A DNA stretch of 64,000 nucleotides from an uncultured Acidobacteriota bacterium. GTDB lineage: Bacteria > Acidobacteriota > Thermoanaerobaculia > Multivoradales > UBA5704. Under the pieces are notes generated by a model. That model saw nothing but the letters and a program-made list of their open reading frames with translations, had not been told where the DNA came from and did not search any database. Made by a program: the position numbers and the translations under genes. The stretch lies in NCBI GenBank assembly GCA_963700145.1, contig OY969474.1, positions 1,472,001-1,536,000 on the forward strand, read 5' to 3'. This document shows positions 41,520-49,856 of this stretch, one piece after another. Numbering within the stretch: position 1 is the first letter of the stretch; every line of letters starts with the position of its first letter.

Positions 41520-44500
41520 ATGCTGATCCACTCGCTCGTCGAGGCGCCGGCGCGCCGCGCACCCCAGGCGCCCGCCCTCGCCTTCGGCGCCGAGCGCCTC
41601 ACCTACGCCGAGCTGGAGGCGCGCGCCAACCGCTTGGCCCGCGCCCTCCGCCGCCGTGGCGTCGGTCCCGAGGCGCTGGTCGGGGTGGCCGCCGAGCGCT
41701 CCGTCGAGACGGTCGTCGCCCTCCTGGCAGTGCTCAAGGCCGGGGGCGCCTACGTGCCGCTCGACCCGAGCTACCCGAGCGAGCGGCTGGCCTTCATGTG
41801 GGGCGACGCGAGCCGCCCCCGCCCGGGAGGCGCGGCGCCGGTCCTGCTGACCCAGGAGCGGACCGCGGGCACTGTGCCGGCGCACGGCGCCCAGGTGCTG
41901 CGGCTCGACGCCGACGCCGCGCTCTGGGCGGGCGAGAGCGCCGAGCCGCTGCCGGCCGGCGAGGTTGCCCTCGACCACGACCACCTCGCCTACGTCATCT
42001 ACACTTCGGGCTCGACCGGCCGCCCCAAGGGCGTGCTGATCGCCCACCGCGGCGTCGTCAACGTGATCCGCGAGTCGGCGCGGCTGCTCGACGTCGGCCC
42101 CGAGAGCCGCGTCCTCCAGCTCGCTTCCCTCTCCTTCGACGCCTCGGTGCTGGAGATCTTCACCGCGCTCTCGACCGGCGCCTGCCTGGTGCTGACGCGG
42201 CGCGAGACCCTGCTCTCGGGCGAGGCACTGGGGCGCGAGCTGGCGGCCGAGCGCATCACCACGATCGCCATCCCGCCGAGTCTCCTGGACAAGGTGCCGG
42301 AGGGGATCGAGCTGCCGGCGCTGCGCTCGATCGTCGTCGGCGGCGAGGCCTGCTCGGCGGCCACGGCGGCGCGCTGGGCGCCGGGCCGGCGGTTCGTCAA
42401 CGCCTACGCGCCGACCGAGGCGACGATCTTCGCCACCGCGGGCGAGGTCACGGGGCTCGACGCGAGCCCGCCGGCCATCGGCGTGCCGATCGCCGAGACC
42501 GAGGTCCAGCTCCTCGGCCCGGACGGCACGCCCGTGCCGCCGGGCGAGCCGGGGGAGATCTGCCTCGGCGGCGCCGGCGTGGCGCGCGGCTACCTGCACC
42601 GGCCGGAACTGACGGCCGAGCGCTTCGTCCCGGCGGCGGGCGGCGCTCGCCTTTACCGCAGCGGCGACCTCGGGCGGCGGCGGCCGGACGGGAGCCTCGA
42701 GTTCATCGGCCGGGTGGACTTCCAGGTCAAGGTGCGCGGCTACCGCATCGAGCTGGGGGAGATCGAGGCAGTGCTCGGCGAGCACCCGGCGGTGCGCAGC
42801 GCGGTCGTCGAGGCGCGGCAGGACGGCGAGGAGAAGCGCCTGGTCGCTTACGTCGTCCCCCGCAGCGCCGCCGAGGGGTTGGTGTCGGCGCTCCGCGCCC
42901 ACCTCGCCGAGCGCCTCCCCGACTACATGGTCCCCGCGGCCTTCGTCTTCCTCGACGCGCTGCCGATGGCCGCGACCGGCAAGGTGGACCGCAAGGCGCT
43001 CCCCGCCCCCGACCGCGCGCGGCCGGCTCTCGAGACCGCCTACGCCGCGCCGTCCGGCCCCGTCGAGGAGACGCTGGCGCGGGTCTGGGGGGAGCTCCTG
43101 GGGCTCGACCGCGTTGGCGCCCGCGACAACCTCTTCGCCCTGGGCGGCCACTCGCTCCTGGTGGCGCAGATCGTCAGCCGGGTGCGCCAGGACCTCGGCG
43201 TCGAGCTGCCGATCCCGGCGGTCTTCGAGCACCCGACGATCGCGGAGCTCGCCGCCCGCATCGAGGCGGCGCGCGCCGGCGGCGGCGCGGCGGACGAGCC
43301 GGAGCTGCCGCCCGTCGAGCGGGTGCCGCGCGACCGGCCGCTCCCCCTCTCCTTCACCCAGGAGCGGGTCTGGTTCCTGAACCAGCTCTCCCCCGGCGCC
43401 ATCGCCTACAACTTCCAGTTCACCCTCCGCTTCCGCGGCCCGCTCGACCGCGCGACGCTGGCGCGCACGCTGACCGAGGTCGTCCGCCGCCACGAGGTGC
43501 TGCGCACCACCTTCCCGGCGCGGGACGGCCGCGGTGTGCAGGTCATCCACCCGCCGTTCGCCGTCGAGCTGCCGGTCGTGGACCTGACGGCGCTGCCGCC
43601 GCCCGCGCGCGAGGCGCGCGCCGAGTGCATCGTGCGGCAGGAGATTCGCCGCGGGTTCGACGTCGCGGAGCTGCCGCTGCTGCGCTGGACCCTGCTCCGC
43701 CTGGCGCCCGACGACCACCTGCTCCTTCAGGTCGAGCACCACTTCGTCCACGACGGGTGGTCCCTGGCGCTCTTCCTGCGCGAGGTCAAGGAGATCTACC
43801 GCGCCTTCGCCGCCGGGCTCCCGTCGCCGCTGCCCGAGCCGCCGATCCAGTACGCCGACTTCGCCGTCTGGCAGCGCCGCTTCCTCGACGGGCCGGTCTT
43901 GGCGCGGCAGCTCGGCTACTGGAAGGAGCGGCTGGGCGAGGACCCGCCGGTCCTCCAGATGCCGGCCGACCACCCGCGGCCGAAGGCCCATTCCTTCCGC
44001 GGCGACGCGTTGCGCGTGGACCTGCCGCACGCGCTCTACGAGGCGGTGCGCGCCTTCGGCCGGCGCAAAGGCTCGACCCTCTTCGTCACCATGCTCTCGG
44101 CCTTCGACGCCCTCCTCTACCGCATGACCGGCCAGGAGGACTTCCTGCTCGGCAGCGGTGTGGCCAACCGCCGGCTGCGCGAGACCGAGCAGATGATCGG
44201 CATGGTGGTCAACACCGTCGTCCTGCGGACACCGCTCGCCGGGGATCTGCCGTTCCGGGACCTCCTGGTGCGCGCCCGCCGCACGATGCTGGAGGCGCAC
44301 CAGCACCAGGACCTGCCGTTCGAGAAACTCGTGCAGGAGCTGCAGCCCGACCGCGACCTGTCGCGCAACCCGCTCTTCCAGGTCCTCTTCAGCTTCCACG
44401 ACGCGCCGGTGCCGGACCTCGACTTCGGCGGCGGCCTCGCCGCCGAGATCTTCGAGCGCCACAACGGCTCGGCCAAGTCGGACCTGAACGTCGTCGCCAA

Positions 44501-49856: not shown

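Follow-up and report, generated by a model that had tools for sequence, protein, structure and literature searches.

Within a 64,000-nucleotide stretch of an uncultured acidobacterial genome (contig OY969474.1, positions 1,472,001 to 1,536,000; hereafter the window, the source genome being G000), a nonribosomal peptide synthetase (NRPS) gene on the plus strand at 41520–49856 is likely to open its assembly line by chain reversal, through a first condensation (C) domain of the type that generates ureido bonds (Curea). The gene, NRPS1, translates without a stop into 2778 residues and combines adenylation (A), carrier (T) and C domains in the order A1-T1-C*-A2-T2-C2-A3-T3, where C* is the Curea-type domain C1. 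This reading is based on the active-site motif of C1, the order of the surrounding domains, the membership of C1 in an exclusive clade and the rarity of its motif.

Pfam identified three AMP-binding, three PP-binding and two Condensation domains in NRPS1, and our own domain hidden Markov models returned the order A-T-C*-A-T-C-A-T. The G+C content at third codon positions (GC3) lies between 0.92 and 0.98 along the entire NRPS1 frame, which holds for no other frame there. A1 (41550–43034) begins at residue 11 with no domain ahead of it and is thus part of a true loading A-T didomain, completed by T1 (43047–43289; GGHSL at residues 542–546, with Ser545). C1 spans 43317–44714 (residues 600–1065), and its active site, LLLQVEHHFVHDGWS, contains the motif E739-H-H-F-V-H744-D-G746 (43734–43757), followed by W-S. 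The remainder of the protein consists of A2 (44778–46319), T2 (46335–46577; GGHSL at residues 1638–1642, with Ser1641), C2 (46593–47939), A3 (48015–49529) and T3 (49551–49793), with the gene stopping 21 codons further on. An initiating A-T followed by a C domain with EHHFVHDG had been proposed in a first-pass annotation made from the DNA letters, and is borne out by the translation, Pfam and the domain models; the same annotation called the remaining C domains canonical, and indeed C2 reads MHHIVADG (residues 1831–1838) and the first C domain of a second synthetase downstream (NRPS2) reads LHHIVADG. The specificity codes that it had read by eye, DALAVGAIFK for A1, DAWFLGHVVK for A2 and DLFNNALTYK for A3, were all recovered from the sequence, although at position 278 of the A3 code a MAFFT alignment gives T, taken as a one-residue register slip, where the motif-based reading gives N. 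No substrate is assigned to the A1 code; by the Stachelhaus tables, the A2 code would be Leu-like and the A3 code would specify Ala.

Yu and van der Donk (2024; PMC11212132) confirm the earlier statement that EHHxxHDG is the reported signature of urea-generating C domains: EHHXXHDG is found in all of the ureido-linked C domains examined there, with syringolin, pacidamycin, antipain, muraymycin, anabaenopeptins, bulbiferamide, chitinimide and pseudovibriamide among the products, as well as in SnaA, and in none of the non-ureido C domains in MIBiG. When SnaA carried E744A or H749A, its ureido product fell to the limit of detection, and both T domains were needed (PMC11212132). The supplement of the same paper places Curea in modular NRPSs always in the first extension module, behind a loading A-T didomain, and the paper notes that Ser753 of SnaA, three residues past the motif Asp, also occurs in amide-forming domains and does not discriminate between the two. 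C1 carries the signature (E739-HHFVH-DG746), follows a loading A-T as part of the first extension module (A-T-C*-A-T), is flanked by T1 and T2 that both retain the phosphopantetheine Ser in a GGHSL motif, and has the downstream Ser (DGWS748). All of the sequence features that we examined put C* in the Curea family.

The motif occurs much less often than would be expected from chance use of C domains. Among the 150 best-scoring large NRPSs from a library of 1.84 billion proteins, EHHxxHDG accounts for 4 of 662 HHxxxDG motifs, with the Glu alone in one and the second His alone in one; the ranking of this search with C1 was swamped by giant NRPSs with many C domains, and its matches were used for motif counts only, not to identify nearest neighbours. 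In G000 itself, 3 of 30 near-full-length C domains have the motif, in each case the C domain that comes first in its NRPS line (at 423474 on the plus strand, at 560458 on the minus strand, and in the window). A DNA pattern for EHHxxHDGW matched 4 of the 401 genomes in our sample of the phylum, with three copies in G000 and a single copy in each of the others; it was absent from 397 of the 400 other genomes, and absent from two genomes of the same family as G000, while a reversed control pattern had no match across the 401.

Phylogeny places C1 together with a domain from a known ureido peptide system. In a first tree of 253 distinct C domains, drawn from G000, 77 named loci, two plasmid loci and four large NRPSs, all 17 E[HQ]HxxHDG domains formed an exclusive clade with an SH-like support of 0.997, which remained exclusive (support 1.0) when 16 columns around the motif were masked. 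Most of the 77 loci had been recruited by a second, non-specific pattern, with seven bearing the motif and one bearing EQH, and an A-T-C*-A-T start was present in 15 of the 17 clade members. In a second, motif-masked tree of 457 domains, 63 motif bearers and one EDH variant made up a clade of 64 (support 0.995) that includes C1 and P0163, a Planktothrix protein named ApnA by UniRef; the latter was found with a Gloeothece C* query, to which it is 80% identical, and has 2166 residues with EHHMVHDGW at the same position. Both trees were built with FastTree, and part of their sampling used a pattern containing the motif. Clading of C1 with ordinary LCL domains, which the first-pass annotation had named as the outcome that would speak against its proposal, was not what we found, C1 sharing an exclusive motif-masked clade with ApnA. 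The tree distance from C1 to ApnA is 1.30, compared with 1.88 from C1 to its own C2. Beyond the motif, W723, M895, H960 and D961 are common to C1, ApnA and most of the clade, and are rare or absent outside it: W723 is found in 49 of the 64 members (the top three residues outside being A, V and T), M895 in 61 of 64 versus F in 288 of 393 outside, and H960 and D961 in 53 and 61 of 64, respectively, where Q-N stands in other domains.

Some members and near-members of this clade merit separate mention. The first His of the motif is altered in two of them, which read EQHLVHDG and EDHLVHDG (L004, from a Longimicrobium metagenome-assembled genome (MAG), and P0204). A locus from a Gammaproteobacteria MAG (L061) encodes a minimal A-T-C*-A-T-thioesterase (TE) protein with two A codes of the DILA(F/L)G(L/M)IWK type; judging from its domains, this protein would be a stand-alone ureido-dipeptide synthetase. 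The Gloeothece cluster comprises three NRPS genes only. When a plasmid collection was searched by tblastn for characterised Curea references, no Pseudovibrio or Microbulbifer plasmid was among the matches listed; a match on a Nostoc punctiforme plasmid was rejected as an apt cluster because it sits inside a mid-line NRPS after a polyketide synthase (PKS), and the apt cluster of Nostoc edaphicum is described as chromosomal in the part of PMC9564503 cited here. None of the chains among the PDB matches listed for C1 is named as ureido-forming, and the motif is missing from the four best alignments, which were the ones inspected; the structure 8z0q, described as a ‘special condensation domain’, was rejected as a ureido-type structure, as it has no HH at the motif site.

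In the mechanism that we propose, A1 would load an unassigned, probably hydrophobic amino acid (X) onto T1, A2 would load a Leu-like residue onto T2, and C1 would link both alpha-amines by a carbonyl, which in characterised relatives is derived from bicarbonate or CO2. Published models have one aminoacyl unit on a T domain N-carboxylated and then activated, either as a Leuchs-anhydride-like species, as was proposed for SylC, or by condensation followed by rearrangement (PMC11212132). X would thereby keep its carboxylate free, X-CO-Leu would remain tethered to T2 through a thioester, and C2 would then add an Ala-type residue. We infer this chemistry from the mutagenesis of SnaA and from the known ureido products, and the substrates are likewise predictions. 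From T3, the line would most likely continue on NRPS2 (plus strand, from 56771 past the window edge at 64000), which starts with an LCL-type C domain and has four C-A-T modules, followed by a ketosynthase (KS), a malonyl-type acyltransferase (AT), a T domain and a TE. The first C domain of NRPS2 scores 347 bits against Txo2, an elongation LCL domain, versus 75–83 bits against the structures of RzmA and CDA-C1, which we take to be starter C domains; being of the elongation type, it would be expected to receive its donor in trans, for which T3 of NRPS1 is the evident candidate. Beyond the window, NRPS2 ends in an intact open reading frame (ORF) of 2024 residues with the layout (C)-A-T-KS-AT-T-TE and no ketoreductase (KR) domain (G000 1539457–1545531), and its AT has the motifs GHSIG and HAFH, the latter presumably marking a malonyl-type domain. 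The product would be a ureido-heptapeptide with one ketide unit, released as a beta-keto acid or, if decarboxylated, as a ketone, which is the least certain step of the scheme. The idea of a single line is supported by a paralogous cluster at 421–457 kb of G000, which shows the same logic in one operon.

Several observations weigh against a ureido-type start, or against its continuation on NRPS2. By overall similarity, the closest matches of C1 in the PDB are LCL-type domains, Txo2 (303.7 bits) and Txo1, an LCL-likeness that PMC11212132 reports for Curea domains too. Moreover, the sole named ureido reference in our trees is ApnA, identified by its database name, with SylC, SnaA, PppA and AntD lying outside the trees, and in 16 database proteins C* is found in a C-A-T-C*-A-T arrangement or deeper rather than after a loading A-T, so that the position rule is not absolute. 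C1 might then be an ordinary LCL domain that makes a normal X-Leu peptide bond, its motif being a quirk of the lineage; antiSMASH labels Curea domains as LCL (PMC11212132). We nevertheless consider this highly improbable, because E739 and H744 occur together rather than singly in the motif counts given above, the C* clade is exclusive even without the motif columns, C1 has the further clade-specific residues, and the same clade holds ApnA, whose products bear a ureido bond according to the structure in PMC9564503, cited in part.

The remaining objections concern what lies downstream of C1. NRPS1 has neither a TE nor a reductive (R) release domain at its end, and NRPS2 begins 6.9 kb further on, behind four genes, one of them on the opposite strand. 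The NRPS2 frame is intact to ~59737 and then undergoes at least 20 frame changes up to a window-equivalent position of 67652 (~8 kb); GC3 periodicity is lost from ~59300, and C-domain matches are fragmented at G000 1532161–1539939, whereas all other NRPSs of G000 are long open frames. It is conceivable, if on balance doubtful, that the cluster is decayed or incomplete, with a Curea-type C1 but a line broken downstream and no finished product. The breaks, however, are sharply bounded: no frame change is found in NRPS1 (8.3 kb), in the first 3 kb of NRPS2 or in its last 6 kb, parts that should also have been hit if a single dead operon had been decaying neutrally. They also coincide with a stretch in which whole NRPS modules are repeated in tandem (59288–64997 versus 62513–68226, the latter reaching G000 1540226; 83.5% DNA identity, period ~3225 bp), a setting in which assembly and polishing errors gather, while the flanking NRPS sequence is clean. 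For these two reasons, we lean, by a modest margin, towards an assembly or polishing artefact as the source of the breaks. No public sequencing run was found to hold the frame-broken stretch, the best share of sampled words being 0.11, and no RNA run was listed; the gap lengths between the repeated modules are uninformative, since 1-nt noise in gap length is equally present in a control pair that is intact. In a Thermoanaerobaculaceae MAG (G405, which holds locus L032), rpoB matches fall into five pieces in different frames, indicating that frameshift errors affect even core genes in some genomes of this group.

NRPS1 could alternatively act alone, with NRPS2 as a separate line and a ureido-tripeptide, X-CO-Leu-Ala, freed from T3 by a trans-acting hydrolase. 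The block of DUF5916 gene, small ORFs, C-first NRPS and KS-AT-T-TE, upstream genes included, is paralogous to a self-contained line at G000 2.951–2.975 Mb, and no A-T loader was found within ~15 kb of the latter; by this paralogy with a loader-less, stand-alone line, and given the four genes between NRPS1 and NRPS2, NRPS2 may be separate. Two nearby genes could supply the hydrolase: a translationally coupled amidohydrolase-superfamily gene (49853–51427, plus strand), whose start overlaps the NRPS1 stop (ATGA), and an alpha/beta hydrolase gene (TAP-like, S33 aminopeptidase type; 53709–55328, plus strand, start codon uncertain). Yet each comes from a multi-copy family and has paralogues remote from any NRPS, neither looks like a type II thioesterase, and the tblastn search of 80 related loci, which returned no matches for the neighbour genes of NRPS1, found no homologue of either; in addition, the elongation-type C domain at the start of NRPS2 needs an upstream donor. 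Release of a tripeptide from NRPS1 seems to us unlikely.

If the ureido-type start does lead into NRPS2, the line would work most like the plan of the sna cluster of Stackebrandtia nassauensis, which makes threopeptin, in that a ureido start is paired with a non-reducing PKS module at the end; it would be longer, however, and has hydrophobic codes. SnaA has the same A-T-Curea-A-T start with EHHxxHDGWS (PMC11212132, in part), and the sna line, like NRPS2 if it is in line here, has a type I PKS module without KR after the peptide part, which makes a C-terminal keto function possible. Unlike SnaA, a bis-Arg system, NRPS1 has A-domain codes that appear hydrophobic, and two to five further NRPS modules would follow. 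A LanB/PEARL-like gene (PF04738), whose product could lengthen the peptide at the free carboxylate as in threopeptin-type systems, had no match in G000 or in 14 control genomes, and none among the scanned ORFs of the window. Syringolin, pacidamycin, antipain, pseudovibriamide and bulbiferamide, which have an N-terminal ureido dipeptide with a free carboxylate, are made with SylC, PacN, AntD/AnpD, PppA and BulbA, respectively, in which Curea has the same motif (Table S3 of PMC11212132, cited in part); these proteins were compared with C1 by motif only.

ApnA/AptA, the anabaenopeptin proteins of Planktothrix and Nostoc, belong to the same C* clade and likewise place C* behind a loading A-T, and ApnA and C1 both have W723, E739, H744, M895, H960 and D961. 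In the ApnA type, however, A-T-C*-A-T is followed by another C-like domain (28 of 48 proteins), taken to be an epimerisation (E) domain, and none follows T2 here; the ApnA type has a Lys-type A2, with DAEDIGSVVK as the code of its Gloeothece orthologue (80% identical), compared with DAWFLGHVVK in NRPS1. Anabaenopeptin has D-Lys at position 2 (PMC9564503, in part), and its synthetase has a Lys module with epimerisation, six modules and a TE; because NRPS1 lacks both a Lys-type A2 and an E-like domain, we rejected it as an anabaenopeptin synthetase. The 16 C-A-T-C*-A-T proteins (L005, P0108 and 14 further proteins such as P0180, P0184 and P0193) form a subclass of their own interest: in L005 and P0108, the A domain ahead of C* has the code DAEDIGT(V/I)VK, near that of the A2 that activates Lys in the ApnA orthologue; of the 14 others, at least 8 would have a similar code, as judged by a crude reading of the motifs. 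From these codes, the ureido bridge in this subclass possibly uses a Lys amine.

G000 contains two further A-T-C*-A-T lines, at 421011–457180 on the plus strand (EHHFVHDG) and at 516270–563011 on the minus strand (EHHFLHDG). The former is one contiguous operon with no more than one frame problem; it begins with A-T-C*-A-T and finishes in KS-AT-T-TE, and its A2 code, DAWFLGHVVK, is also that of the window line. The A1 codes of the two further lines are DVENVGAITK and DVENVGAVTK. The sole MbtH gene of G000 is at 4.645 Mb. Acidobacterial origin, as assumed by the first-pass annotation, agrees with the RpoB comparison, by which G000 falls within Thermoanaerobaculia: its conserved RpoB domain is 90% identical to that of a MAG labelled Thermoanaerobaculia, 70–72% identical to those of Pyrinomonadaceae, Terriglobales and Bryobacterales, and 54–68% identical to those of Methylomirabilota, Nitrospirales, Myxococcota and Longimicrobium. 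We tentatively suggest that one Thermoanaerobaculia lineage may run three NRPS lines from a chain-reversal start, two of them ending in KS-AT-T-TE without a reductive domain, and that the products of these may be peptides with a ureido group at the N-terminus and a beta-keto acid or ketone at the C-terminus.

Of the genes between NRPS1 and NRPS2, the amidohydrolase has its nearest solved relatives among prolidase and Arg-carboxypeptidase types and a 62% identical paralogue elsewhere in G000; any role in the pathway would be conjectural. It is followed by a gene for a DUF5916/CBM9 protein on the minus strand (51428–53926), whose family has multiple copies, another of them lying ahead of the NRPS-PKS line at 2.95 Mb. 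Directly upstream of NRPS2 lies a candidate selenoprotein of ~334 residues with a signal-like N-terminus (55753–56757, plus strand), in which two same-frame ORFs are separated by a TGA at 56359–56361 (LLSPT-TGA-GVC). Its paralogue at G000 2953730–2954572 has a TGA at the same place (SPT-TGA-WIC), and both copies are directly upstream of a C-first NRPS-PKS gene. The genome encodes tRNA-SeC (2739718–2739817) and SelA (354.7 bits); a search with the SelB-wing_2 profile gave no match, and the candidate itself had no match in Pfam or NCBIfam. The TGA site looks like a UxxC selenocysteine redox motif, and a conserved secreted UxxC selenoprotein beside each C-first NRPS-PKS half could possibly be linked to tailoring or self-protection. 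Elsewhere in the window, a low-GC island at 20000–24500 (58–61%, against ~72% around it) holds a DDE transposase gene (DUF772 + DDE_Tnp_1; 23322–24404, minus strand) and an ORF without a family (20807–22444).

In conclusion, the locus is a motif-based prediction of a ureido NRPS and a good lead. Ureido peptides such as syringolin, antipain, the anabaenopeptins and the pseudovibriamides often inhibit proteases or the proteasome, or act in signalling. The known mechanism is unchanged by the finding, C* joining an already described domain family; the sequence rule for predicting ureido peptides dates only from 2024, and is here applied to a class of Acidobacteriota, a phylum from which no ureido peptide was found reported in the portion of the literature covered by our search. 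With three ureido-type starts in one genome and none in 397 of 400 others, G000 provides a sensible target for heterologous expression, and if its three lines do start by chain reversal, they would represent a family of protease-inhibitor-like ureido scaffolds so far unknown from Acidobacteriota.

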